NCBI GenBank assembly: GCA_943356415.1
Contig: CALREW010000001.1
Span: 80,528-144,527 of the forward strand
Direction of reading: 5' to 3'
Source of the DNA: Candidatus Nomurabacteria bacterium
GTDB taxonomy: Bacteria; Patescibacteriota; Minisyncoccia; Phycocordibacterales; SBAW01
Length of the DNA stretch: 64,000 nt
Position 1 is the first letter of the stretch. Each line of letters starts with the position of its first letter. The position numbers and the translations under genes were made by a program. The notes under the pieces were generated by a model. That model was not told the origin of the DNA. It made no database searches and was given only the letters and a program-made list of their open reading frames with translations. This document shows, piece after piece, positions 4,611-59,094 of this stretch.

Positions 4611-4686
4611 CGGGCCCTTAGCTTAGTTGGTAGAGCGCCTCATTTGCAATGAGGAGGTCACCGGTTCGAATCCGGTAGGGTCCACC
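4611..4686 (+). tRNA. tRNA-Ala (anticodon TGC)
   Basis: GGGCCCTTAGCTTAGTTGGTAGAGC...TTTGCAA...GGTTCGAATCC...AGGGTCCACCA. G3:U70 is present and CCA is encoded. Confidence 0.9.
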
Positions 4687-6190
4687 AAATTTGATTTGCA
4701 TCAGAATTGACCGCGCCCGCGCCAGAGGCGCGGGCTTGGGCTGGCATTTCCGCCAAGAAATTCCAAGGGGTTTTGAATTCCGCCAAAAGCATTCCCGCCG
4801 CGAGGCGGCGGTTCGAGCCGATGGAAACAAGAAAATCTTTCATCCCCGAAAGATTTTCTTGTTTCGAGAGATTTTCGGCTTGGTTGGCTTCAATAATCCA
4901 GTTTCGCATGAGTTCGAGCCAATGATTACCTTTTCGCTCAAAATCACTCAATTTCTCCTCCAGTGTCTTTTTTTCCGACATTAAAATATTCTTTTTCTCC
5001 TGATACTCGGTAAGTTCCAATGCCTCGCCTAAATATGCGTCTGTAAGTCGCTCTAGTCGCATTTTAATGGCGGAAATAGTATCGCGGAGATTTTGAGCGA
5101 AAAGGTCAGACGAATGGCGGGATTCCACTTGCTCGCTTTCAAGACGAGCAATATATTTGTCCCGCCATTCGTCCGGCAAAGAAACTTTTTGACAAAGCGT
5201 TTTCACTTGCTCGGCTAGGGCTTCCTCACGCAAAAAGCGATTTTCAGTACACGCAATAGTTTTACTCTTGTGGGTGCAACGATAATATACGAACTTCAAA
5301 CCACTTTTCTTGATGTGTCGCTCGGCGGTTATTGCATATCCACAAACCCCACAAGTAGCAAAACCTAAAAACTGAAAATTCTTTGGTCCTCGCTTTTTGC
5401 GGGGTTTACCATTCGTGATACACGCCTCTTGGATTTGGTCAAAAAGTTTCTTTGAAATCATTGGCTTATGCGATCCGGCATGCACATCGCCACGATACTG
5501 AAAATGTCCGTAGTAAAAAGGATTAGTTAAAATATGCTCCACCGAGGCAAGGGCGAGGGGCTTGCCGGTCTTGCCAACCAAGCCGACAGAAAACATTTTG
5601 CGCTGAATGCCAGTGAGCGTGTATTGTCCTGTAGCAAAAGCCCCTAGACATTCTTTCACTTTCGCAAAGGTCTTTTTGTCCGGCTCAATCGTTCGCAAAC
5701 GAGGTTCGTTGAAATAGCCGAGAGGGGCTTTTGCCGATAATTCGCCACGGCGTATCTTTTGCCGTATACCGCGCAAAATGTTTTCTCGCAAATTATCGGT
5801 GTAATATTTTGCTTGACCGAACGCCACAGACAACATGAATTTACCCTGTGGCGTCGGCTCAAACCAAAATGTAGGGAATTTTAGCGTGGTGATTTTGCCA
5901 GTGTCTACTAAATAAATCACTCTGCCTCCGTCTATCGAGTTGCGCGCCAATCTATCGGGATTCCACGCTAAAATTCCCTGCGCAGTGCCTTTTTCAATTT
6001 CGCCAAGCATTTCTTTAAAAATTTCACGACCAGGTTCTTTTGCAGTTTTACTCTCGTAAAATTCCTTAACAACAAAAAGAGAGTTTTGCTTGGCGAATTC
6101 CCGAAGCTCCGTCAGTTGTGCCTCAATGCTCAAAACTTGGCGTTCTTCATCTTCGCTCGATTTTCTACAGTAGATAAAATATTTCGTCAT
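4658..6190 (-). CDS. Large serine recombinase (resolvase catalytic domain, recombinase domain and zinc ribbon)
   Basis: N-terminus YCRKSSEDEERQVLSIEAQ carries the catalytic Ser, followed by ...DRLARN and a CGVCG...YYRC zinc ribbon with a coiled coil. The start is taken at MTKY (ATG at 6190), because the tracked N-terminal extension runs into repeat A'. The 3' end runs through repeat A into the tRNA 3' end. Confidence 0.85.
   Translation of the reverse strand: MTKYFIYCRKSSEDEERQVLSIEAQLTELREFAKQNSLFVVKEFYESKTAKEPGREIFKEMLGEIEKGTAQGILAWNPDRLARNSIDGGRVIYLVDTGKITTLKFPTFWFEPTPQGKFMLSVAFGQAKYYTDNLRENILRGIRQKIRRGELSAKAPLGYFNEPRLRTIEPDKKTFAKVKECLGAFATGQYTLTGIQRKMFSVGLVGKTGKPLALASVEHILTNPFYYGHFQYRGDVHAGSHKPMISKKLFDQIQEACITNGKPRKKRGPKNFQFLGFATCGVCGYAITAERHIKKSGLKFVYYRCTHKSKTIACTENRFLREEALAEQVKTLCQKVSLPDEWRDKYIARLESEQVESRHSSDLFAQNLRDTISAIKMRLERLTDAYLGEALELTEYQEKKNILMSEKKTLEEKLSDFERKGNHWLELMRNWIIEANQAENLSKQENLSGMKDFLVSIGSNRRLAAGMLLAEFKTPWNFLAEMPAQARASGAGAVNSDANQIWWTLPDSNR
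4681..4814. repeat. Inverted repeat A (134 bp), starting with the last 6 nt (CCACCA) of tRNA-Ala(TGC)
   Basis: A perfect reverse-complement copy lies at 6294-6427; I verified this base by base. The segment also encodes the C-terminal ~44 aa of the recombinase. Confidence 0.9.
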
Positions 6191-6293
6191 AGCTTCGGGA
6201 ATTAAATTGATAAAGGCACTGCACTTACACCGACAATTTGCAATCTCTCCGCATCGGCTCCTGTGCGAAGCACAGAACAAGCGTTAGCTTGTG

Positions 6294-6427
6294 GAACCGC
6301 CGCCTCGCGGCGGGAATGCTTTTGGCGGAATTCAAAACCCCTTGGAATTTCTTGGCGGAAATGCCAGCCCAAGCCCGCGCCTCTGGCGCGGGCGCGGTCA
6401 ATTCTGATGCAAATCAAATTTGGTGGT
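6294..6427. repeat. Inverted repeat A' (reverse complement of 4681-4814), ending in TGGTGG
   Basis: Perfect identity to the reverse complement of repeat A. Confidence 0.9.
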
Positions 6428-6678
6428 GTTTGTTTGAAAAAGTTAGAACTCATTTCGAGCAGAACCCCTGACTTCGCACGCGCGGAGCGCGTGATGGCTT
6501 GAAACTGCCTCGTACGCTCGGATTGCGTGGTGATGCGAACCAATGCGCCTCGGACACGCTCGCGGACTCGCGTGTGCAAAACCCAAAAATTTTCCTTCCT
6601 TAATTTCTGATTTTCGGCGGGGGGTGTGGGGGGAGCCGACAAAAAATGGAAAGGAAATTTTTGGTTTTGCTTCGCCGT
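6423..6678. repeat. Inverted repeat B (~255 bp), abutting repeat A' at the TGGTGG core
   Basis: The reverse complement recurs at 9105-9359. The spurious ORFs 6202..6816(-) and the 9083.. N-terminal extension share the identical peptide ...AKQNQKFPFHFLSAPPTPPAENQKLRKENFW... Confidence 0.9.
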
Positions 6679-6759
6679 ATTGAGAATACTTACAATTATT
6701 GCTATCATAGTATTGTACTCAAAGTATACCACAAATAATGATATCAAAGTATTGAAACT

Positions 6760-6957
6760 ATGGCAACGATTGGCGAAAATATAAAAAGAGTGCGTAACAA
6801 GCTTGGTTTGACCCAAGACGATTTAGTGAGGAAGTCCGGTGTTAAACATACTACTCTTACAAAAATTGAAAGTAATGTGGTGGTCAAACCAAGCGTGCAG
6901 ACCGTCGCCAAAATCGCCAAGTCGTTGGGCGTTCCTATGGAGGAATTAGTAAAATAA
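6760..6957 (+). CDS. XRE-family (Cro/CI-type) HTH transcriptional regulator
   Basis: 65 aa; IKRVRNKLGLTQDDLVRKSGVKHTTLTKIE is a classic HTH_3 pattern. First gene of the AT-rich cargo operon, with a repeated CAAAGTAT motif upstream. Confidence 0.75.
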   Translation: MATIGENIKRVRNKLGLTQDDLVRKSGVKHTTLTKIESNVVVKPSVQTVAKIAKSLGVPMEELVK

Positions 6958-6961
6958 TTTT

Positions 6962-7477
6962 ATGGCAATAAACACAGCACCACATATTCATAATCTTGTA
7001 ATCTGCGCGAATATTTTTGTCCGCAAAGACGGCAAGTATCTTTTACTAAAACGATCTGCACAAAAAAAGTATGCACCGAATGTAATTCATCCTATCGGCG
7101 GAAAAGTAGACCCTGATGAAAATCCTTATACTGGCGCACAACGCGAGCTTTTAGAAGAAGCCGGAATCAAAGTCAAAAATATGCGTTTAGAAGCTGTCAT
7201 CATGGAAATTAAGCCAGTAAAGGGTGAGGACGAAAATTGGTTGATTTTTCACTTTTCCGCCGATTACGAATCGGGCGAACTTATAACAACCAAAGAGGGA
7301 GAATTTGTTTATTTAAGTGCTGAAGAAATACCAAAGCAAGATTTGTTTCCATCTGTTCGCCCCATTATTCAACACATTCTCAATCCGAAAGATGGAACAG
7401 TATTTTTTACAGTTTCCTATGATGATAATGGAAAAGTTGTTGAGGAAACAAAAAGCGTGAATCTATGCGCTATATAA
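6962..7477 (+). CDS. Nudix hydrolase
   Basis: Nudix box GGKVDPDENPYTGAQRELLEEAGI (GX5EX7REUXEEXGU). Confidence 0.8.
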   Translation: MAINTAPHIHNLVICANIFVRKDGKYLLLKRSAQKKYAPNVIHPIGGKVDPDENPYTGAQRELLEEAGIKVKNMRLEAVIMEIKPVKGEDENWLIFHFSADYESGELITTKEGEFVYLSAEEIPKQDLFPSVRPIIQHILNPKDGTVFFTVSYDDNGKVVEETKSVNLCAI

Positions 7478-7481
7478 ATTT

Positions 7482-8033
7482 ATGGCAAATATTACTTTTA
7501 TAACAGGTAACCAAAAGAAAGCCGACTATCTAGCCAAGTATCTTGGTTTTCCTGTTGACCATGTAAAACTTGATTTAGACGAAATTCAATCACTTAATCT
7601 AAAAGAAATTGTTGAACATAAAGTCCGACAGGCTTATGAAAAAATAAAGAAGCCTGTCATTGTTGAGGATGTTTCGTTAGAGTTTGCCGCGCTTGGTAGG
7701 TTACCCGGCACTTTTATTAAATTTTTTGTTGACGAAGTACCATTTGAAAATATTTGTTCAATGATTGATGGAAAAACAAGAAAAGCAACCGCCCGATGTG
7801 TGTTTGGGTACTTTGATGGACAAGAATTGAAACTTTTTGAGGGTGGACTTGATGGTGAAATAGCCACAACGCCGTCAGGCGAAAATGGCTATGGCTGGGA
7901 TAAAATTTTTATCCCGCAAGGTTACACCGTAACGCGAGCTTCACTTGAAGAAAAAGACGACCAAAAAACTTATTTACAAATCAAGCCATTTGCAAAATTA
8001 AAAGAGTTTCTTGAATCAAAAATCAACAACTAA
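7482..8033 (+). CDS. Ham1/RdgB-family non-canonical purine NTP pyrophosphatase (ITPase-like)
   Basis: FITGNQKK at the N-terminus, VEDVSLEFAALGRLPG and GYGWDKIF, corresponding to the Ham1 motifs. Confidence 0.8.
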   Translation: MANITFITGNQKKADYLAKYLGFPVDHVKLDLDEIQSLNLKEIVEHKVRQAYEKIKKPVIVEDVSLEFAALGRLPGTFIKFFVDEVPFENICSMIDGKTRKATARCVFGYFDGQELKLFEGGLDGEIATTPSGENGYGWDKIFIPQGYTVTRASLEEKDDQKTYLQIKPFAKLKEFLESKINN

Positions 8034-8035
8034 AT

Positions 8036-8482
8036 ATGACAACAATAAATGAGGGTAAAATCAGAATAAAAGCCATGTGTCTTTTTCATAAAGATGGGAA
8101 AGTTTTGGTATCTAAAGGCTTTGATAAAGTAAAAAATGAAAACTTTTATCGCGTTCTTGGTGGTAGCGTAAATTTCTTTGAAACCGGCGAAGCCGGTGTC
8201 CGCAGAGAGATACAAGAGGAATTGCTAAGCGAAGTTGAAAATTTGAAATTGATTGATGTCATTGAGAACTTGTTTACTTATGAGGGAAACAAGGGGCATG
8301 AAATTGTTTTCTTGTATCATGGGGATTTAGCGCGTAAGGAATTATATGCGCAAAATCCTATTCATATCATTGAGGAAGCCTATGAATTTGATGCTGAATG
8401 GATTGCTACAAGTGATATTCTTGCTGGGAAAATTCCTCTCTATCCAGCTCTTGATTACAAAAGTTTATTCAAGAAACTATAA
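8036..8482 (+). CDS. Nudix hydrolase (second copy, divergent)
   Basis: GGSVNFFETGEAGVRREIQEELL is a Nudix-box-like sequence. Confidence 0.7.
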   Translation: MTTINEGKIRIKAMCLFHKDGKVLVSKGFDKVKNENFYRVLGGSVNFFETGEAGVRREIQEELLSEVENLKLIDVIENLFTYEGNKGHEIVFLYHGDLARKELYAQNPIHIIEEAYEFDAEWIATSDILAGKIPLYPALDYKSLFKKL

Positions 8483-8501
8483 TTAACTTTTAACCAAAAT
8501 T

Positions 8502-8903
8502 ATGTATCTAAGCTATTTAATGGGAGCAAAAAATATTAACGATGAAGATTTAACAAATCTTGATATTGTTATTGTGGAGAAAACAGATTCAGAAAGTAGG
8601 AAACTCAAAATTCCGTCTGAAAAAATCGAGGGATACAAGAATTTAATTAGAGAAAAAATGACTCCTGGGTTTTGGAACGAATTTTTAGACGAAAATGCTG
8701 TGCATTTTATTTTCAAGTTAAAGAACGGTGAATTAAAAGAATATGTCTTGTCACCAGAAAACGAACTAGAAATTGACCATCTTTGTGCTGAATTAAACAA
8801 TGAACCAGCTGGAAAAACCGCGAATGTTTTTAAATATATTTCCGACAATGATTTTTACCACGATTTTATGATGAAGCATTATAAAGAAATGATTGAACGG
8901 TAA
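8502..8903 (+). CDS. Hypothetical protein (133 aa, acidic, no recognisable domain)
   Basis: ORF in the same AT-rich operon, followed by a strong hairpin. Confidence 0.45.
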   Translation: MYLSYLMGAKNINDEDLTNLDIVIVEKTDSESRKLKIPSEKIEGYKNLIREKMTPGFWNEFLDENAVHFIFKLKNGELKEYVLSPENELEIDHLCAELNNEPAGKTANVFKYISDNDFYHDFMMKHYKEMIER

Positions 8904-8908
8904 GGGAG

Positions 8909-8952
8909 CAACCCCCGCCGTTTTATAATATTTCCTAAAAACGGCGGGGTTG
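8909..8952 (+). terminator. Hairpin terminator of the cargo operon
   Basis: CAACCCCCGCCGTTTT...AAAACGGCGGGGTTG, a 16-bp stem. Confidence 0.55.
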
Positions 8953-9104
8953 TTGTGCGCGCACTGGGCGGGCGGGGCAAGCACATATCAAACATGATTG
9001 CGCCCTAGCGCAAACCAAATTGTATTGCGCCTCGGTCGCCGTGAGGGCGGAGAAAAGAGCAAACAAAAATGCTATAATATAATTGCTCTTTTTGCAGACT
9101 GAAA

Positions 9105-9359
9105 CGGCGAAGCAAAACCAAAAATTTCCTTTCCATTTTTTGTCGGCTCCCCCCACACCCCCCGCCGAAAATCAGAAATTAAGGAAGGAAAATTTTTGGG
9201 TTTTGCACACGCGAGTCCGCGAGCGTGTCCGAGGCGCATTGGTTCGCATCACCACGCAATCCGAGCGTACGAGGCAGTTTCAAGCCATCACGCGCTCCGC
9301 GCGTGCGAAGTCAGGGGTTCTGCTCGAAATGAGTTCTAACTTTTTCAAACAAACACCAC
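9105..9359. repeat. Inverted repeat B' (reverse complement of 6423-6678), ending ...CAAACAAACACCAC
   Basis: Verified identity to the reverse complement of repeat B. Identity stops at the CCAC core. Confidence 0.9.
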
Positions 9360-14985: not shown

Positions 14986-15362
14986 ATGACAAATCCACTC
15001 GAGAGAAGTCGCATACCTGCCTCACCTGATAGTCAATTGTTGAACGACGCACGTAGCCAGCTGCGCAGCTATGTTGCGCTTGTTGGACTCGTCGGTGTTG
15101 GCTCTGCAACAAGAGAAAAGATTCTCGGCATTATCGACGGCTTGGATCTTAGTGAGGGGATTGAGATCTTGCACGGTAAACATCCGCTCTATGAAGGAGA
15201 AAGTGTTCGTGAGCGTGCAGTTACTTTTGTTCGACAAAGTGTTCGAATCAAACTTTTACCGCTGGTAGCAGAACTGCCAGAAAACGAACAACCCCAGATT
15301 CAGGATTTCCTAAAATTTATGGGACAGGCCCAGTCTGCCACTCGGCCAAGTAATGCCAGAGA

Positions 15363-15366
<4 letters not shown>
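14986..15366 (+). CDS. Hypothetical protein (126 aa) inserted between atpG and atpD
   Basis: ORF only; no recognisable motif. It is tightly packed in the operon. Confidence 0.4.
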
Positions 15367-17059
<1,693 letters not shown>

Positions 17060-20432: not shown

Positions 20433-21425
20433 CTATTCCGGCCGCACCTTGAAGCCCGCCTTGACGAGGCTGTCGTGGATTCGCTTCGCGTCGCTGTTGC
20501 GGAACGCAAGCGTCTCTACCGGATTCATGAAGACGGGTTCGGCGCCCATCTGGGTGTACTTCCGCCCCACCTCGCCTTCGAGTGCTTCCTTGATGAGGGC
20601 GGAGAGCTTGTCGACGACGGCCTGAGGCAAACCACGGGGTCCGCACAGTCCGCCCCACGTGGTCATCTCGTAGCCAGGTAACAGCTCGTCGAGTGCCGGA
20701 AGTTCCGGCAGTTGTCGGTTACGCTTCCTTGATGTGACGGCCAGGCCCTTCATCGTTCCTGCGCGAATATTCGTCACGGCCGGGCCGATGTTATCGAACA
20801 TGAGATCGGCGTGGCCACCAACGATGTCGCGCACCGCTTCGCCAGTCCCACCCTTGTAACCGACCGATGTGAAGGTAATGCCAGTCATCTGCTCGAAGAG
20901 AACGAGTGAGATGTGTGGAGTGGTGGCGATGCCGCCGTGTGCTGCCGTATATGGCTTGGGGTTCACCTTCGCGAGCGCAACGAGTTCTTCTACCGATGAA
21001 ACCGGCAGGTCACGGCGGGTCAGAAGAACGTTGCTTTGCAGATACAACGTGCCAATTGCCGCGAAGTCCTTCACAGAATCATACGGCGCAGGCGCTGCAA
21101 CATCGACTCCATCAGGAATGATCATCGTCGATGATGCATGAGTGACCGCGTTGTAGAGGCCGATGGTGTACCCATCTGGTGCAGCTTTTGCGAGTGCTGC
21201 AGTACCGATGGTACCGCTTGCGCCGAGGATGTTCTTGACCAGGAAGTTCTGTCCAGTGCGCTCGCTTGCGAACGCACAGAAAATCCTGATAAAGACGTCG
21301 GTGGGGCCGCCTGCCGAAAACGGGCAGATTACCTCGACTGGCCGATTAGGCCACGCGTCTTGCGCAAACGCAGGGACGCAGATCGCCCGAGGTGCAACTG
21401 CGGCGCTAAGGCTAACCGCAAGCAT
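20433..21425 (-). CDS. TctC/'Bug'-family tripartite tricarboxylate transporter periplasmic binding protein (orphan)
   Basis: Signal peptide followed by PNRPVEVICPFSAGGPTD...ILGASGTIGTAALAKAAPDGYTIGL. High GC (~62%). The start is taken at MLAVSL (ATG at 21425). Confidence 0.7.
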   Translation of the reverse strand: MLAVSLSAAVAPRAICVPAFAQDAWPNRPVEVICPFSAGGPTDVFIRIFCAFASERTGQNFLVKNILGASGTIGTAALAKAAPDGYTIGLYNAVTHASSTMIIPDGVDVAAPAPYDSVKDFAAIGTLYLQSNVLLTRRDLPVSSVEELVALAKVNPKPYTAAHGGIATTPHISLVLFEQMTGITFTSVGYKGGTGEAVRDIVGGHADLMFDNIGPAVTNIRAGTMKGLAVTSRKRNRQLPELPALDELLPGYEMTTWGGLCGPRGLPQAVVDKLSALIKEALEGEVGRKYTQMGAEPVFMNPVETLAFRNSDAKRIHDSLVKAGFKVRPE

Positions 21426-21672
21426 ACTGCGACGGGGAAGTACGAGTTTGAACACGAATTGAGCCCTCCTTGGGCGTGTTGGTTGTGTAGGGGAAGAAGG
21501 GGCAGTAGTGCCCGAACAGAGTTCCAAAAATGAGAGTACTGCATCGGAGCACAGAGTTCCATAGAATGCGAAACTCGTCGCGTCTGTGTATCGTTAGAAA
21601 GGAAGGAGCACCTTGAGACGTGCTTTTCACCACATTCTGCAATATAGGGCGCTGCCCAGAAAGGACGACCGC

Positions 21673-23499
21673 ATGTGCGGAATCATCGGAATCATCGGCA
21701 AGGCGCCGGTCACCCCGCTTCTTGTCGATGCGCTGAAGCGCCTCGAATACCGTGGCTATGACTCAGCGGGTGTTGCGACGCTCATCAACGGCCACATCGA
21801 TCGCCGACGCGCGGAAGGCAAGCTGGCCAATCTCGAGGCGAAGCTCGCTGGGGAACCACTGGCGGGCACTATCGGCATCGGTCACACGCGCTGGGCGACG
21901 CACGGGAAGCCGAGCGAACGCAACGCTCACCCGATCGCAACGGATCGTGTGGCAGTCGTTCACAACGGCATCATCGAGAACTTCCAGGAGCTCAAGGACG
22001 AGCTCGTGGCGGAAGGTCGTCGCTTCGACAGCGACACAGACACGGAAGTCGTCGCGCAACTGCTGACCTCGTACCTCGAGCGCCAGCTGTCGCCCGAGCA
22101 GGCGATGGAAAAAGCAATGGGACGCTTCAAGGGCGCATTTGCCCTCGTCGCTCTCTTTGCTGGACGACACGATATTCTCATCGGCGCTCGTCGTGGTTCG
22201 TCACTCGCTGTCGGCTACGGCGAAGGTGCAATGTACATCGGCACCGACGCCCTTGCACTCGCGCCGTTCACCGATCGCGTCGCGTACCTGGAGGAGGGTG
22301 ATTGGGCTGTTCTGCGCGATACTGATTGCCTCTTCTATCAAGGGGTGACGCAGGTCACACGGACCGCAAAGCATACCGGCCTCAGCTCGACACTCGTCGG
22401 CAAGGGGAATCACCCGCATTTCATGCTCAAGGAGATCTGTGAGCAGCCAACGGTGTTGGGTGACACGATGCAGCAATATCTCGACCCCAGTCGACGTGTG
22501 CGCCTGCCGGCGCTTTCGATCGACTGGAAGAACGTGAGTCGCTTGACCATGACTGCGTGCGGCACGGCGAACTTTGCCTGCCAGATCGCTAAGTACTGGT
22601 TCGAGAAACTGGCTCGGCTTCCCGTCGACACAGAGATTGCCTCCGAGATGGGCAGTCGCAAGCCGCCGCTTTCGAAAGGAAGCGTCTGCGTAGCCGTGTC
22701 GCAGTCTGGCGAGACCGCAGACACGATTCGCGCGATCAAGTACGCCAAGCAGGAAGGCTTGAAGGTCGTCTCCGTCGTGAACGTGCCGGAGAGTCAGATT
22801 GCCCGCCTGAGTGATGTGGTACTGCTGACGGTCGCTGGCCCTGAAATCGCGGTGGCGTCTACCAAGGCGTTCACCACGCAGTTGCTGGTATTACTGTCTG
22901 CAGCGATCGATGCAGGCCGCGCGCGAGGCACGCTGTCGGAGGAAGATGAGCGCGCGCTCACGCTTGCGCTTATCGAGCTGCCGAGGAAGGTGAGCGAGGT
23001 CATCGATGCACAGGAGCAGTTCAAGGCGCTCGGTGCACTCGAACTTCTCGCGAAGGCGAAGTGCGCGCTCTACCTGGGACGCGACTATCAGTATCTGATC
23101 GCCATGGAAGGGGCGCTCAAGCTGAAGGAGTTGACCTATATTTCGGCCGAAGGGTACGCCGGCGGCGAAATGAAGCATGGGCCTATTGCCCTGGTCGACT
23201 CGGACCTCCCGGTCTTCGTGCTGGCTCCTTCGGGCCCGTCGTTTGACGAGATGGTGTCGAACTTCGAGCAGGTGAAAGCGCGCGGTGGTCAGGTCATCCT
23301 CCTTACCGACGCGCGTGGTGCGAGCCGTCTCGCCAACGAAAGCACGGCGTGCTGCATCACTCTGCCCGACGTTCATCCGGACGTCGCGCCCATCCTCTAC
23401 GCCGTCGCAGTGCAGTTGATCGCGTATCATACGGCACTGTCGATGGGCAGAGATATCGATCAGCCTCGCAATCTGGCAAAGTCGGTGAGCGTCGCGTGA
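21673..23499 (+). CDS. glmS: Glutamine--fructose-6-phosphate aminotransferase
   Basis: N-terminal MCGIIGIIG (Cys2 nucleophile), two SIS domains and a C-terminal ...AKSVSVA. High GC. Confidence 0.9.
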   Translation: MCGIIGIIGKAPVTPLLVDALKRLEYRGYDSAGVATLINGHIDRRRAEGKLANLEAKLAGEPLAGTIGIGHTRWATHGKPSERNAHPIATDRVAVVHNGIIENFQELKDELVAEGRRFDSDTDTEVVAQLLTSYLERQLSPEQAMEKAMGRFKGAFALVALFAGRHDILIGARRGSSLAVGYGEGAMYIGTDALALAPFTDRVAYLEEGDWAVLRDTDCLFYQGVTQVTRTAKHTGLSSTLVGKGNHPHFMLKEICEQPTVLGDTMQQYLDPSRRVRLPALSIDWKNVSRLTMTACGTANFACQIAKYWFEKLARLPVDTEIASEMGSRKPPLSKGSVCVAVSQSGETADTIRAIKYAKQEGLKVVSVVNVPESQIARLSDVVLLTVAGPEIAVASTKAFTTQLLVLLSAAIDAGRARGTLSEEDERALTLALIELPRKVSEVIDAQEQFKALGALELLAKAKCALYLGRDYQYLIAMEGALKLKELTYISAEGYAGGEMKHGPIALVDSDLPVFVLAPSGPSFDEMVSNFEQVKARGGQVILLTDARGASRLANESTACCITLPDVHPDVAPILYAVAVQLIAYHTALSMGRDIDQPRNLAKSVSVA

Positions 23500-56836: not shown

Positions 56837-57060
56837 TTCTTCACCCCGCGTCGCGCATCTGTACCGTCGCCTAAGTTTAAGAAGGACCTTTTAAAAAGAA
56901 ATGCTCAAAATAAAACGACAAAAAACGTTCATTTTTTATTGCAACAGAGAAATTGACAAGTAGCTATTTTTATCCTAAAGTGGCTCTGGATAAGGGTTTC
57001 TGAGCTCGCTCTTTGAGACTCTGCTATCCGGTCTAACCGACAAGAAGAGAGGTAAGTCCG

Positions 57061-59094
57061 ATGTTTTGGGTAGTTCTCCTCGCGGCCTCGCTGATCGCGG
57101 GGGCTGTGTTCCGCTGGAAGCGGCGCAGCGTCCCGATCCTTCAGCAAGTGCCGTCCCTCCCGGTCTACGCGGTGCTGAGCGTCGTCGCTCTGTTCTCCGT
57201 GTTCCAGACCTCAACCGTGAACCCGGGCGGAAGCCAGTTCGCGCAGTTCGTCCGCATCTACTTCTGCAAGGAGATCACAGACGGACGCAACGTGGCCTTG
57301 CCGGGCGAATGCGGCCGTCAGGCCGAGATCGTCATGCCGGGCTTCCAGTTCTCGTTCTTGGTGAACGTCCTCAATGACGTCACCTATCACGAGATGTTGG
57401 ACGTCGCCGACGGCCATTACGCGCTGCTCAATGCGCGTGACGGTCTGAAGATGGACGAAGGCCAGGTCGCAGCCAAACCGTGGGCTCTCGGGATCATCAC
57501 CATGATGACCAAGGCTGCCGACGGCAAGCTCATCCCGTTGACGACCAAGGGATCCGACGGCAAGGATATCGAGGTGAAGGGCAACATGCTCGACGCCACG
57601 TTCTTCCTCACCAAGGGCCAAGGCCGCAAGGGTCCGCAGACGACCGTGCTGCCTCCTGGCCGGTACGCGCTGAACAACTTCCTGTGGGATGTGACCGTCG
57701 ACCAGGCGGTCGAGTCCACCGACAAGAAGAAGACGCTCACCAGCAAGTACGTCCGACGCACCATCCAGCCGGGCCACGTAGGCGTGATCAAGTCGGCAAT
57801 CGACAGCGACGTCGTGCCGGCCTTCATGCCTGATGCCGGCAAGTCGATCGACTGCGGCGCACACGTCGCCGAGGAGAAGACCCTCGGCCAGATCAAGGCG
57901 GTGCTCGTTCCGGTGGGCTGCCGCGGCGTCTGGAAGGATACCCTCCATCCCGGCGACTACTTCATCAACGAGCGCGTCTACCAGGTCACCGAGGTCGACA
58001 CGCGTGTGCAGAACTGGACCTTCCAGGGCGGCTACAAGCGCCGCTACATCAACCTCTCGATCAGCGACAACGGCCAGATCACCCAACAAGTGGTCCTGGA
58101 CGACGTCGATCTGCCTCTCGGCGGTGCCGGTGGCGCGATCGCGGTGAAGGTCGAGGGCTGGACGGTCTACCAGGACGTCCGCTTGCAGGCACGCGCCTTG
58201 CCGGAGTACGCCGCGCTGGTCGTGGCGGCCGTCGGCGGGCTGAAGGAGGTCGAGGACCGCATCATCGTTCCGCAGGTCAGCTCCGTCCTGCGTGACGTTG
58301 GCGGTTCGCGCATCTCGGTCTCGAATACGGCCGCCTACGAGGAGGCCAAGTCCGAGCTCGACGCGCTGAAGGCCCGGTTGGAGATCCTCAAGGACTCCAA
58401 TACGGAAGTCGGTCTCTCCGCCGAGCAGCGGGCCGTTGAGGTCGCCCAGCTCGAACGGCAGATCGCCGGCATCCGTCTTCCGGACCCGAACACGACAGTC
58501 ACACGCCCCACGCGTGTGCTGGACTTCCAGAACGAGCGCGCTGCCCTGCAGAAGCTCGTGGCTGCGGACATCCAGCTCATCGGCAAGGGCGCTGGCATCG
58601 AAATTGTGAACGTCACCTTCGGCAACGCCGACATTCCGGCGGAACTCCTGGTGTCACGCAAGATCGAGCAGCTCTCGGGCCAGATGCGCAACGCCTACCT
58701 GCAGCAGCGGGTGGCCCAGGTCCAGCGTCAGGCGACGGAGTCCGCCAGGGCTCGCGCCGACCAGCAGAAGGATCTGGTCACCGCTGCGGTCAAGGTCGAG
58801 ACGTCCAAGCTCGGCATCGAAAGCCGAACCAACGACGGCAAGGCCGAGCAAGCGTATCTCGAGGCGCTCGCCAAGGGTCAGTTGGCCCAGGCGAACGTGC
58901 TCGGTCCTGACCGTGTGCTGATGTTCAACCTCGTCCAGGAAGTCCTGAAGCATCCGGACGCCATCGGCGCCCTGAAGCTTCCCTCCACCTTGACCCTCGG
59001 GCAGGGCGGCGGGCTGACGGACATGGCGACGATCCTTGGCGCAACGAAGCTCTTCGGCGGACCAGCTACGGCCGCGCCTCCGACGACGCGTTGA
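57061..59094 (+). CDS. SPFH/band-7 (flotillin-like) membrane protein, 677 aa, high GC (~63%)
   Basis: N-terminal TM, a central region compatible with SPFH, and a C-terminal Ala/Gln/Glu-rich flotillin-like repeat region (EQAYLEALAKGQLAQANVLG). The antisense ORFs are GC artefacts. Confidence 0.4.
   Translation: MFWVVLLAASLIAGAVFRWKRRSVPILQQVPSLPVYAVLSVVALFSVFQTSTVNPGGSQFAQFVRIYFCKEITDGRNVALPGECGRQAEIVMPGFQFSFLVNVLNDVTYHEMLDVADGHYALLNARDGLKMDEGQVAAKPWALGIITMMTKAADGKLIPLTTKGSDGKDIEVKGNMLDATFFLTKGQGRKGPQTTVLPPGRYALNNFLWDVTVDQAVESTDKKKTLTSKYVRRTIQPGHVGVIKSAIDSDVVPAFMPDAGKSIDCGAHVAEEKTLGQIKAVLVPVGCRGVWKDTLHPGDYFINERVYQVTEVDTRVQNWTFQGGYKRRYINLSISDNGQITQQVVLDDVDLPLGGAGGAIAVKVEGWTVYQDVRLQARALPEYAALVVAAVGGLKEVEDRIIVPQVSSVLRDVGGSRISVSNTAAYEEAKSELDALKARLEILKDSNTEVGLSAEQRAVEVAQLERQIAGIRLPDPNTTVTRPTRVLDFQNERAALQKLVAADIQLIGKGAGIEIVNVTFGNADIPAELLVSRKIEQLSGQMRNAYLQQRVAQVQRQATESARARADQQKDLVTAAVKVETSKLGIESRTNDGKAEQAYLEALAKGQLAQANVLGPDRVLMFNLVQEVLKHPDAIGALKLPSTLTLGQGGGLTDMATILGATKLFGGPATAAPPTTR

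Follow-up and report, generated by a model that had tools for sequence, protein, structure and literature searches.

The DNA considered here is a stretch of 64,000 nucleotides (nt) from a Candidatus Nomurabacteria contig (CALREW010000001.1, positions 80,528 to 144,527), the whole of which is referred to as the window. Within it the segment at 4682-9359 is best read as an integrative element of about 4.7 kb that was probably inserted at the 3' end of a tRNA-Ala(UGC) gene by its own large serine recombinase, Rec. The element is bounded and divided by three junctions, and these follow the logic of an attL site, an inverted attP site and an attR site, respectively. On the far side of the recombinase lies a cargo operon of five genes, encoding a small XRE-family regulator, a Nudix hydrolase, a Ham1-type pyrophosphatase, a second Nudix hydrolase and a protein with no Pfam match (ORF5, for open reading frame 5), and it is likely that this operon acts in cleaning the nucleotide pool, as a mobile accessory trait of the host. 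The element belongs to a family with an odd inverted-repeat design, of which there is no description in the literature searched, a search outside which most subscription journals fall.

The tRNA-Ala(UGC) gene that forms the integration target (4612-4687, + strand; found by ARAGORN and with an Rfam score of 73.9 bits) contains within its last bases the sequence CCAC (4682-4685), which is the crossover core of junction 1, an attL-type junction between the tRNA and repeat A. Repeat A, or the Q arm, is a 133-nt sequence (4682-4814) that begins within the 3' end of the tRNA gene, is the antisense of the last 44 or so codons of rec, and has a 100% inverted match, A', at 6294-6426, around 100 nt upstream of the rec start. 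The rec gene (4658-6190, - strand) encodes a protein of 510 amino acids (aa) with the domains Resolvase, Recombinase and Zn_ribbon_recom (PF00239, PF07508 and PF13408), all above their gathering scores, and with an N-terminal YCRKSS...Q motif in which the catalytic serine is legible; its match to the integrase family PHROG 95 has an E of 1e-67. A' runs into repeat B (6423-6678), one of two P arms, which is matched exactly and in inverted orientation over 256 nt by B' (9104-9359). Where A' meets B (junction 2, core GTGG at 6423-6426) there is an intact attP-type site in inverted orientation, and where B' meets the host (junction 3, core CCAC at 9356-9359) the site is of the attR type. Beyond B' lies host DNA, with a GNAT gene and then the atp operon.

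How are these three junctions related? Written in one orientation, with the crossover marked by a slash, junction 1 (tRNA/A) reads GGGTCCAC/CAAATTTG, junction 2 (A'/B, as its reverse complement) reads AAACACCAC/CAAATTTG and junction 3 (B'/host) reads AAACACCAC/AAACGAC. Junction 2 takes its left half from junction 3 and its right half from junction 1, with the 4-nt core CCAC between them, and it stands to the other two as attP stands to attR and attL, being an attP-type site that lies inverted inside the element. The end of the recombinase gene differs accordingly on the two kinds of arm. In the integrated gene the sequence after the WW codons is drawn from the antisense of the tRNA gene, which supplies both the last seven residues, TLPDSNR (a T-type tail), and the stop codon, and the first 45 nt or so of repeat B, in frame with A', encode the conserved P-type tail CLFEKVRTHFEQNP. 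Excision through junctions 1 and 3 is predicted to yield a circle of 4.67 kb, in which two inverted attP regions of about 390 bp split a rec arc from a cargo arc. The circle would be closed by the B'/A junction …CAAACAAACACCAC/CAAATTTGATTTG… and would leave behind the empty site …GGGTCCAC/AAACGACACAAAG…, with the end of the tRNA gene reading TCCAC/AAACGA. The window also contains an unoccupied tRNA-Ala(GGC) gene that ends TCCAC/AAAAAG, which is similar to this predicted attB.

Several other arrangements can be set aside. The insertion of two circles in sequence, with palindromic joints, is ruled out because junction 2 shares no same-strand dinucleotide with junctions 1 and 3, from which it follows that the core is truly inverted. 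An insertion sequence or composite transposon does not fit the outer ends A and B', which are unrelated, nor the cores of successive junctions, which are inverted and not direct. With invertons and shufflons the locus shares the flanking of rec by A and A', the flanking of the cargo by B and B' and the adjoining recombinase, but both orientations are not seen among the assembled relatives. No gene resembling a recombination directionality factor (RDF) is evident among the genes of the element, which comprise rec, the XRE gene and the payload, no dedicated RDF test having been made. Rfam returned tRNAs only, giving the repeats no match to a known RNA, and the folding of repeat B is unremarkable (z about 0).

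The perfection of the repeats raises the question of whether they, and the placement of the cassette between them, might have arisen through mis-joins at repeats during assembly. Independent megahit assemblies (k = 141) of related samples provide one contig that runs through the tRNA cluster, A, rec and A', crossing both A arms unbroken, and stops 141 nt into B, another that corresponds to the cassette (window 6423-8928), and a host contig that begins 141 nt inside B'. The contigs end 141 nt into B and B' because the true repeat, at 256 nt, exceeds the k of 141, which also means that a graph of this kind cannot fix the orientation of the cassette and to that extent leaves room for an artefact. 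The orientation rests on the window assembly and on consistency among relatives, being alike in 12/12 of the elements that bear an XRE gene. Room is also left by a Logan contig (L002, from ERR5863123), in which the cassette is present at 99.6% identity but 43 nt of unrelated, terminator-like DNA (positions 1-43 of the contig) replace repeat B upstream of the promoter; this stretch is absent from every other locus in the comparison set and reflects either a different context or a mis-join of unitigs. Given that one contig spans the tRNA gene, A, rec and A' into B, that the host contig enters B', and that the identical architecture is found in dozens of loci from different assemblers and many studies, an assembly artefact is scarcely credible.

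The distinction between what belongs to the element and what is merely carried by it comes from a relative, L058, in which Rec is 90% and the XRE protein 95% identical. L058 aligns to window 4721-6964 and 8902-9205, and in place of the four payload genes it has three hydrophobic proteins without Pfam matches. These breaks in homology define a payload slot that opens at the XRE stop codon and closes at the terminator hairpin, and rec, the repeats, the promoter/operator region, the XRE gene and the terminator together form the backbone. The same division is apparent in the wider cargo survey, which covers 20 complete elements of more than 500, the sibling ORFs being called by a simple longest-ORF rule. 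XRE is the sole recurrent gene on the cargo side, found in 12 of the 20 elements, always beside the rec-proximal arm and always reading away from rec. When proteins are clustered at 90% identity, the cluster of XRE has 275 members and that of Rec 64, and those of the payload proteins have 1-12. That payloads are replaced by cassette exchange at the att sites is rejected, since the boundary of the payload falls within the bracket, past XRE.

The cargo operon occupies 6760-8903 on the + strand, and its five ORFs lie where the preliminary description of this DNA had placed them. That description had also proposed a mobile context from the foreign GC, the bracketing inverted repeats and the adjoining serine recombinase. 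That context is upheld, the GC fraction being 0.364 in 6679-9103, 0.48-0.50 in the flanks and 0.45 in rec. The genes are closely packed, with gaps of 4, 4, 2 and 19 nt in order. The first encodes the XRE-family helix-turn-helix (HTH) protein of 65 aa (6760-6957, + strand; Pfam HTH_3, E 6e-15). Upstream of it is a promoter-like site on the + strand, with a -35/-10 match TTGAGA-17-TATCAT and an extended TG (6680-6708), which starts at the inner edge of repeat B, and two operator-like repeats of TCAAAGTAT, also on the + strand (6719-6727 and 6744-6752). By motif count these are the only two occurrences in the 64-kb window, at 6719 and 6744, and 2/100 shuffles reach two matches. A terminator-like hairpin follows the payload slot at about 8907-8954 on the + strand (-27.5 kcal/mol, z = -2.9). 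The operator motif and the terminator had been taken as the operon's own; both are present, but they belong to the element backbone and are kept in L058. The XRE protein has a weak match to the PADLOC model Control_protein (E 3e-7), and each XRE homolog is preceded by element-specific repeats. XRE probably sets the expression of the operon through operator repeats of the TCAAGTAT type.

The payload begins with Nudix-1 (6962-7477, + strand, 171 aa; PF00293, E 5e-18), which has the complete Nudix box GKVDPDENPYTGAQRELLEEAG. Its nearest solved structures by sequence are MutT (3fk9) and NudG (2rrk), its subfamily is narrow, with 21 representatives at E < 1e-30, and it matches the PADLOC candidate single-gene system PDC-S07 with an E of 9e-12. 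Nudix-2 (8036-8482, + strand, 148 aa; PF00293, E 3e-9) has the box GSVNFFETGEAGVRREIQEELL, so that the early claim of two intact Nudix boxes holds in full for Nudix-1 and in part for Nudix-2, in which the catalytic REUXEE is intact (as REIQEE) but the final G is replaced by L. The AF2 model of Nudix-2 (pLDDT 91.9) has its best fold match in 2pqv (TM 0.70), followed by NUDX1, NudG, Ap4A hydrolase, MutT and NudI. It has 80 homologs, with copies at 72-78% identity in varied and unrelated chromosomal contexts. In NCBIfam the two Nudix proteins score far under the cut-offs, for example 34 against 148 bits for MutT and 34 against 156 for a NudG-type model. The hidden Markov model and structure comparisons that had been suggested for these proteins place both among the NTPases of the MutT/NudG/NUDX1 type, and on sequence and modelled fold they are assigned to the broad class of MutT-like (d)NTP pyrophosphohydrolases, which is as narrow as the assignment goes.

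A close homolog of Nudix-2 (78%) sits in another gathering of small hydrolases on a Patescibacteria chromosome (L148 6001-9025), in the order Nudix, Nudix, metallo-beta-lactamase, AlaX-type tRNA-editing domain and a DUF3850-Nudix fusion, the metallo-beta-lactamase having a weak Apyc1-like match.

Ham1 (7482-8033, + strand, 183 aa; PF01725, E 5e-33) has its motifs TGNxxK, LPGxxIK and GWD all legible, as had been noted at the outset, and scores 114.9 bits with the Pfam model Ham1p_like against a gathering cut-off of 22.5. In NCBIfam it reaches 117 bits against a cut-off of 203 and 106 against 145. It matches human ITPA with an E of 8e-23 over 175 residues and the Kongming protein KomB (8zsg) with an E of 5e-22, and by sequence it is probably a pyrophosphatase of the ITPA/archaeal type that acts on non-canonical purine NTPs. 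It has 2849 homologs, of which more than 100, at 77-97% identity, lie on Patescibacteria contigs of up to 1.2 Mb. The copies at 96% and 87% identity stand alone on chromosomes, among unrelated neighbours; that at 96% comes from an organism with a GC of 0.34 in the same study, and its DNA is 91% identical, a likeness confined to the gene.

The last payload gene, ORF5 (8502-8903, + strand, 133 aa; no Pfam match), had been described as an acidic orphan. It is acidic, with a pI of 4.9, but it is not an orphan, having 133 homologs at E <= 1e-3. Among the 45 genome loci in which these were found, the gene is free-standing (about 135 aa, with no recurrent neighbour) in about 21, and in about 23 it takes the form of an insertion of about 120 aa within a leucyl-tRNA synthetase (LeuRS) of about 900-1000 aa from the candidate phyla radiation (CPR) and DPANN. 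This insertion is 37-48% identical to ORF5 and is sited just after the AVPAHDERDFEFAKKY motif (for example L039 6966-9650, and loci L033-L052). By this homology ORF5 is a free-standing member of a CPR/DPANN family shared with the LeuRS insertion domain. Its model (pLDDT 93.7) finds in the PDB a generic ferredoxin-like fold and nothing specific.

Some homologs of ORF5 have neighbours that deserve mention. In L013 the gene directly downstream resembles a CsaA/Trbp111-type tRNA-binding protein, and in L028 a related gene lies about 1.2 kb upstream, both likenesses being judged by eye alone. In an unrelated metagenome-assembled genome (MAG; L017 7739-9732) a free-standing ORF5 homolog (61%) has a tRNA-Glu gene on one side and, on the other, a homolog (50% identical) of the GNAT gene that borders the element in the window, with the recombinase absent. 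This arrangement may be a remnant, or it may mark a hot spot of insertion common to the two. A more distant system, L015 (5940-10799), has a Rec of 45% identity that ends in the P-type tail ...IRTFFERN, and it lacks a repeat of the A type; after Rec comes a 36-nt inverted pair that encloses an XRE gene, a homolog of ORF5, a weak match to cytidine deaminase and an unknown protein of 326 aa, and a fusion resembling a nucleoside deoxyribosyltransferase and MazG lies just beyond the bracket. A by-eye guess that the 326-aa protein is an HhH-GPD glycosylase found no support in Pfam and was dropped.

Taken singly, each payload gene closely copies a gene that is common on the chromosomes of the lineage, and is an ordinary house-cleaning gene. 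The combination is another matter. The same five genes occur at 98-99% identity on a 60,660-nt contig of another study (ENA ERZ1305449), where the cassette lies between two inverted, mirror-symmetric Rec genes. A tblastn search with the five proteins found no co-occurrence in the 45 ORF5 loci or in 87 Rec loci (80 metagenomic and 7 viral), and in the Nudix-2 and Ham1 homolog contexts examined the other payload genes are absent. The four-gene set co-occurs only in near-identical copies, and the combination is unique to this payload. The neighbourhood search envisaged in the preliminary description has in this way yielded no conserved five-gene cassette, and chromosomal conservation outside islands is seen for the genes one at a time and not for the cassette as a unit. 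That the operon is an ordinary chromosomal housekeeping operon, with the repeats and recombinase incidental, draws on the many close chromosomal homologs that each gene has in Patescibacteria, but it is already contradicted by the GC of 0.36 against 0.50 in the flanks, by the exact att logic of the junctions, by L058, with the same backbone and a different payload, and by the absence of the cassette from the other ORF5, Nudix-2 and Ham1 contexts examined; it has next to no chance of being correct.

What, then, does the payload do? On balance it is probable that the operon cleans the nucleotide pool and is carried as a mobile accessory trait. The three hydrolases would act as their chromosomal homologs do, on deaminated, oxidised and non-canonical (d)NTPs: Ham1 would remove ITP, dITP and XTP, and the Nudix pair would remove oxidised or otherwise altered (d)NTPs. 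Such a sanitation trait would be useful to Patescibacteria that scavenge nucleotides. The suggestion, made earlier as an alternative, that ordinary house-cleaning genes happen to be carried here fits better than a specialised system, Ham1 being 96% identical in aa and 91% in nt to a stand-alone gene. There are points that weigh against this interpretation. With respect to the element, a search by way of the GNAT, SET and AtpB proteins met only with occupied sites or broken contigs and with no empty tRNA-Ala(UGC)/GNAT site, and the circular junction of this exact element was not recovered, integration being deduced from the junction logic and GC. With respect to the function, none of the three hydrolases reaches an NCBIfam equivalog cut-off, ORF5 is without known function, three pyrophosphatases in one operon exceed simple redundancy, the slot in siblings most often holds restriction-modification (R-M) genes, and the ERZ1305449 cassette stands in a defence-rich neighbourhood.

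These last two observations lead to the view that the payload is directed against phage by way of the nucleotide pool, with the pyrophosphatases destroying the modified dNTPs that phages with modified genomes require (for example dUTP/hm-dUTP, hm-dCTP, dZTP, dITP or 7-deaza-dGTP) and so complementing the R-M systems of siblings. R-M genes are the commonest filling of the slot, found in 6/18 distinct elements, and include C5 or N6/N4 methylases with nucleases of the HinP1I, MjaI, Bsp6I or HNH type, or an EcoRI-type methylase. The cassette of ERZ1305449 is flanked on one side by Type III R-M and an HTH_17 gene and on the other by a dCMP deaminase and Mrr_N. Nucleotide-metabolism cargo recurs, with dCMP/cytidine deaminases in L127, on the ERZ1305449 contig and, weakly, in L015, and Nudix-1 has its match to PDC-S07. 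The last of these is at the level of generic Nudix similarity, however, the genes are not co-inherited beyond near-identical copies, Ham1 is a near-copy of a stand-alone chromosomal gene, and the slot also holds clear non-defence cargo, such as a P-type ATPase, an LD-carboxypeptidase with LysE, and Clp. The case for an anti-phage role is one of association, and it is considered possible but unlikely. The remaining sibling payloads include, besides the deaminases, the P-type ATPase and the Clp protease, a radical-SAM protein with a TrmB regulator and many unknowns; PADLOC gave no matches for 10 unannotated sibling cargo proteins. One sibling (L099 1547-3103) encodes a fusion of a LexA DNA-binding domain, an S24 peptidase and a C5 DNA methylase beside a Bsp6I-like nuclease, which could be a methylase regulated by self-cleavage.

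The link to defence that had been suspected is therefore retained in so far as sibling slots carry R-M genes and the flanks of ERZ1305449 are of this kind, but a dedicated, repressor-controlled nucleotide-cleaving defence system is not supported. XRE and the promoter are backbone, with an XRE 95% identical standing before the unrelated payload of L058, and PADLOC gives no complete match to a known system, only generic HTH and Nudix hits.

Within defence, the opposite role can also be envisaged, whereby the cassette degrades immune signals (the dITP of Kongming, signals derived from ADP-ribose (ADPR), or cyclic nucleotides) and the element or its host escapes abortive infection. The Kongming system consists of KomA, a deaminase, KomB, a HAM1-like protein that binds dITP, and KomC, a SIR2 protein, and dITP is an established immune signal (bioRxiv 10.1101/2024.12.20.629578; PMC13454610). 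The likeness of Ham1 to KomB equals its likeness to human ITPA. Set against this, neither KomA nor KomC is encoded nearby and PADLOC finds no match for Ham1, the two Nudix proteins resemble NTPases rather than enzymes of ADPR or NAD, and Ham1 is a common housekeeping ITPase of the lineage; moreover Ham1, Nudix-1 and ORF5 have zero relatives among the 2.9 million viral contigs of IMG/VR. A role in countering immune signalling is hence highly improbable. Kongming itself is rejected as an identity for the cassette, which has only a KomB-like protein, with two Nudix proteins and ORF5 as its neighbours, and for which the similarity to ITPA is equally strong.

The element is one of many. Relatives of Rec number at least 511 in JGI metagenome contigs, from which 80 loci were kept, and wherever relatives of Rec, XRE and the payload proteins bear a name they belong to Patescibacteria (Taylor-, Azam-, Kaiser-, Campbell- and Berkelbacteria, among others). 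Annotated phages and plasmids have only recombinases that are <30% identical, and the seven matches of Rec in IMG/VR comprise four at 24-26% identity and three at 44-69% that are partial or cut by the contig end. The plan recurs in a Berkelbacteria MAG (L039), with a Rec of 66% identity at a tRNA-Ala(GGC) gene, a perfect A/A' pair of 135 nt, a B/B' pair and the core CCACCA, where an XRE gene (59% identical) heads a cargo that continues with an LD-carboxypeptidase and a LysE exporter. The 3' end of rec overlaps that of a tRNA gene in nearly all loci long enough to judge. Among closer relatives the target is tRNA-Ala with any anticodon, or occasionally tRNA-Val or tRNA-Lys, and in a clade at about 48-50% identity it is tRNA-Gln, -Gly, -Ser, -Trp or -Asn. 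Upstream of rec, 64 metagenome loci and L039 have the rec 3' end repeated in inverted form; of the 65 A/A' pairs measured, 25 are identical and 40 are at least 97% identical. Where the length of the contig permits, which is so for 20 elements, a second inverted pair (70-390 nt) adjoins A' and encloses a cargo of 0.6-5.3 kb. The three-junction rule is obeyed in every case written out, among them at least 9 further elements at tRNA-Ala, tRNA-Ser, tRNA-Trp and other genes, with the discriminator-CCA end as the core.

Some relatives depart from the plan. In L056 (149-2023) an A'-rec-A module lies between two convergent tRNA-Ala genes of different anticodons, with Q arms from different element variants and the cargo module absent. 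In L107 (1176-2370) an A'-rec module, whose contig ends within rec, abuts a tRNA-Ala gene at the A' side and again has no cargo module. These two suggest either that the internal attP has recombined with a second tRNA gene or that remnants have become stacked. In L109 (1-8608) the cargo stands between two complete, inverted rec modules, which form a 2125-nt repeat at 99.95% identity.

One of the more puzzling questions concerning these elements relates to why a second, intact attP region should be kept, inverted, inside the integrated copy. The arms are identical within an element while Rec differs by 10-50% between elements, and the arms thus co-evolve with the element to which they belong. 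Across the core the P arm encodes a tail with the consensus (D/E)x(V/I)RT(F/H)F(E/D)QN, which is conserved, through synonymous changes, from 45% to 100% Rec identity. In integrated copies this tail is lost and reading into the tRNA gene gives an arbitrary tail of 0-40 residues; a full-length Rec with the P tail is found in the relatives P0208 (a contig of 4118 nt), L061 and L131. The P arms also hold a hairpin with a G-rich loop, at about 6612-6650 and 9132-9170 of the window, the loop of which, GGGGGGTGTGGGGGG, is a mirror repeat. The same G-rich mirror-repeat hairpin, for example GGAAGGGGGTTGGGGGGAAGGAA, is present in the B arms of L039, L061, L065, L069, L080, L093, L099, L104 and L128, and is reversed relative to the core in L060, L066 and L123; it has no Rfam match. 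The orientation of the assembled copies is fixed, with XRE rec-proximal in 12/12 and with nearly all Rec tails of the T type, which makes free flip-flop inversion unlikely. The internal attP nevertheless seems able to react, as indicated by the rec modules between convergent tRNA-Ala genes (L056 and L107) and the cargo between inverted rec modules (L109 and ERZ1305449).

Three roles for the spare attP are put forward as hypotheses. First, the swap of tails may set the direction of recombination, with the spare copy restoring or supplying the tail, possibly as a small A'-B peptide. Second, it may provide a docking site for further DNA. Third, it may form a regulatory block of Rec binding and termination between the divergent rec and XRE promoters. 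A far-reaching view is that the family represents a new organisational type, in which the inverted, intact second attP is a working part, that it is the main vehicle of defence and nucleotide-metabolism genes among Patescibacteria, and that the payload is an anti-phage module that destroys modified dNTPs. As a whole this is decidedly unlikely. Within it, the second attP could, together with the tail swap, replace a separate directionality factor, or it could be a live attP for the capture or exchange of DNA at tRNA ends.

In overall terms the locus behaves as would a serine-integrase island at a tRNA gene, its cargo led by a controller, and the features of that class that were tested are found here. 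As in the large-serine-recombinase elements (phiC31/Bxb1/A118, SCCmec CcrAB, fdxN XisF and Tn4451 TnpX), there is a three-domain recombinase, for which XisF and CcrB are the best NCBIfam matches, both far under cut-off, together with a short core, attL and attR sites that are recombinants of attP and attB, and a cargo unrelated to mobility. Unlike those elements, (i) Rec shares <30% identity with any annotated phage or plasmid recombinase, (ii) integration is aimed at the final 4-7 nt of tRNA genes, (iii) the attP lies inside the rec coding sequence, so that integration replaces a conserved C-terminal tail, and (iv) a second intact attP region of about 390 bp is retained, inverted, within the element.

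Two long identical inverted repeats carrying recombinase sites, which split the predicted circle into a rec arc and a cargo arc, call to mind systems with two inverted recombination regions, such as the yeast 2-micron plasmid (Flp/FRT) and the inverted repeats of plastids, and also the inverted att sites of engineered phiC31 cassette exchange. The arms evolve in concert here too. The differences are that the element has no replication functions, a serine rather than a tyrosine recombinase and one fixed orientation in the assembled copies, and that its payload is swapped inside the bracket, after XRE, and not at the att sites. The XRE gene has its own parallel in the C-protein R-M units, where likewise a small XRE/HTH gene comes first in the operon with repeated operator-like motifs upstream, and where R-M genes follow, as they do in several siblings. 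It differs from them in that an XRE of 95% identity also precedes non-R-M payloads, as part of the element backbone, and DNA binding by it is a prediction. The payload enzymes share the Nudix box and fold, or the Ham1 domain and motifs, with MutT, NudG, NUDX1, MTH1, ITPA, RdgB and Mj0226, but unlike the case of these house-cleaning pyrophosphatases there are three in one mobile operon, alongside a protein resembling a LeuRS insert. The tycheposons of Prochlorococcus are likewise small and cargo-bearing, are directed at the tRNA genes of streamlined genomes and in a minority of cases use large serine recombinases, and their cargo is adaptive or defence-related, with arrays and remnants at tRNA hot spots (bioRxiv 10.1101/2020.12.28.424599). 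Tycheposons have direct partial-tRNA repeats, and many carry replication genes, unlike the present element, in which only the 4-7 nt tRNA end is shared, the long repeats are inverted, there is no replication gene and XRE leads the slot.

Elsewhere in the window, the ATP synthase operon of the host contains, between its gamma and beta genes (14986-15680), a 126-aa protein with no Pfam match and a 105-aa MazG-type NTP pyrophosphatase, the latter being a second house-cleaning pyrophosphatase near the element on the host side. Two segments, 20433-23000 and 57000-59000, have a GC of 0.58-0.65 against a window mean of 0.51, the first including a periplasmic binding protein of the TctC/Bug family, and may be further foreign DNA.

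Gene exchange in the ultra-small, host-dependent Patescibacteria is poorly understood, and plasmids, conjugative systems and transposons have seldom been recognised in them. A family of more than 500 compact elements, with definable attP and attB sites at tRNA 3' ends, a fixed backbone and a bounded payload slot, provides a concrete route for gene flow and for the turnover of defence genes in this radiation. As natural serine integrases with known pairs of sites, the recombinases are possible tools, and the near-identical inverted attP duplicate bears on how the direction of an integrase may be controlled with no evident helper protein. The interest of the cargo operon is more modest, in that house-cleaning genes circulate as mobile cargo among organisms that scavenge their nucleotides.

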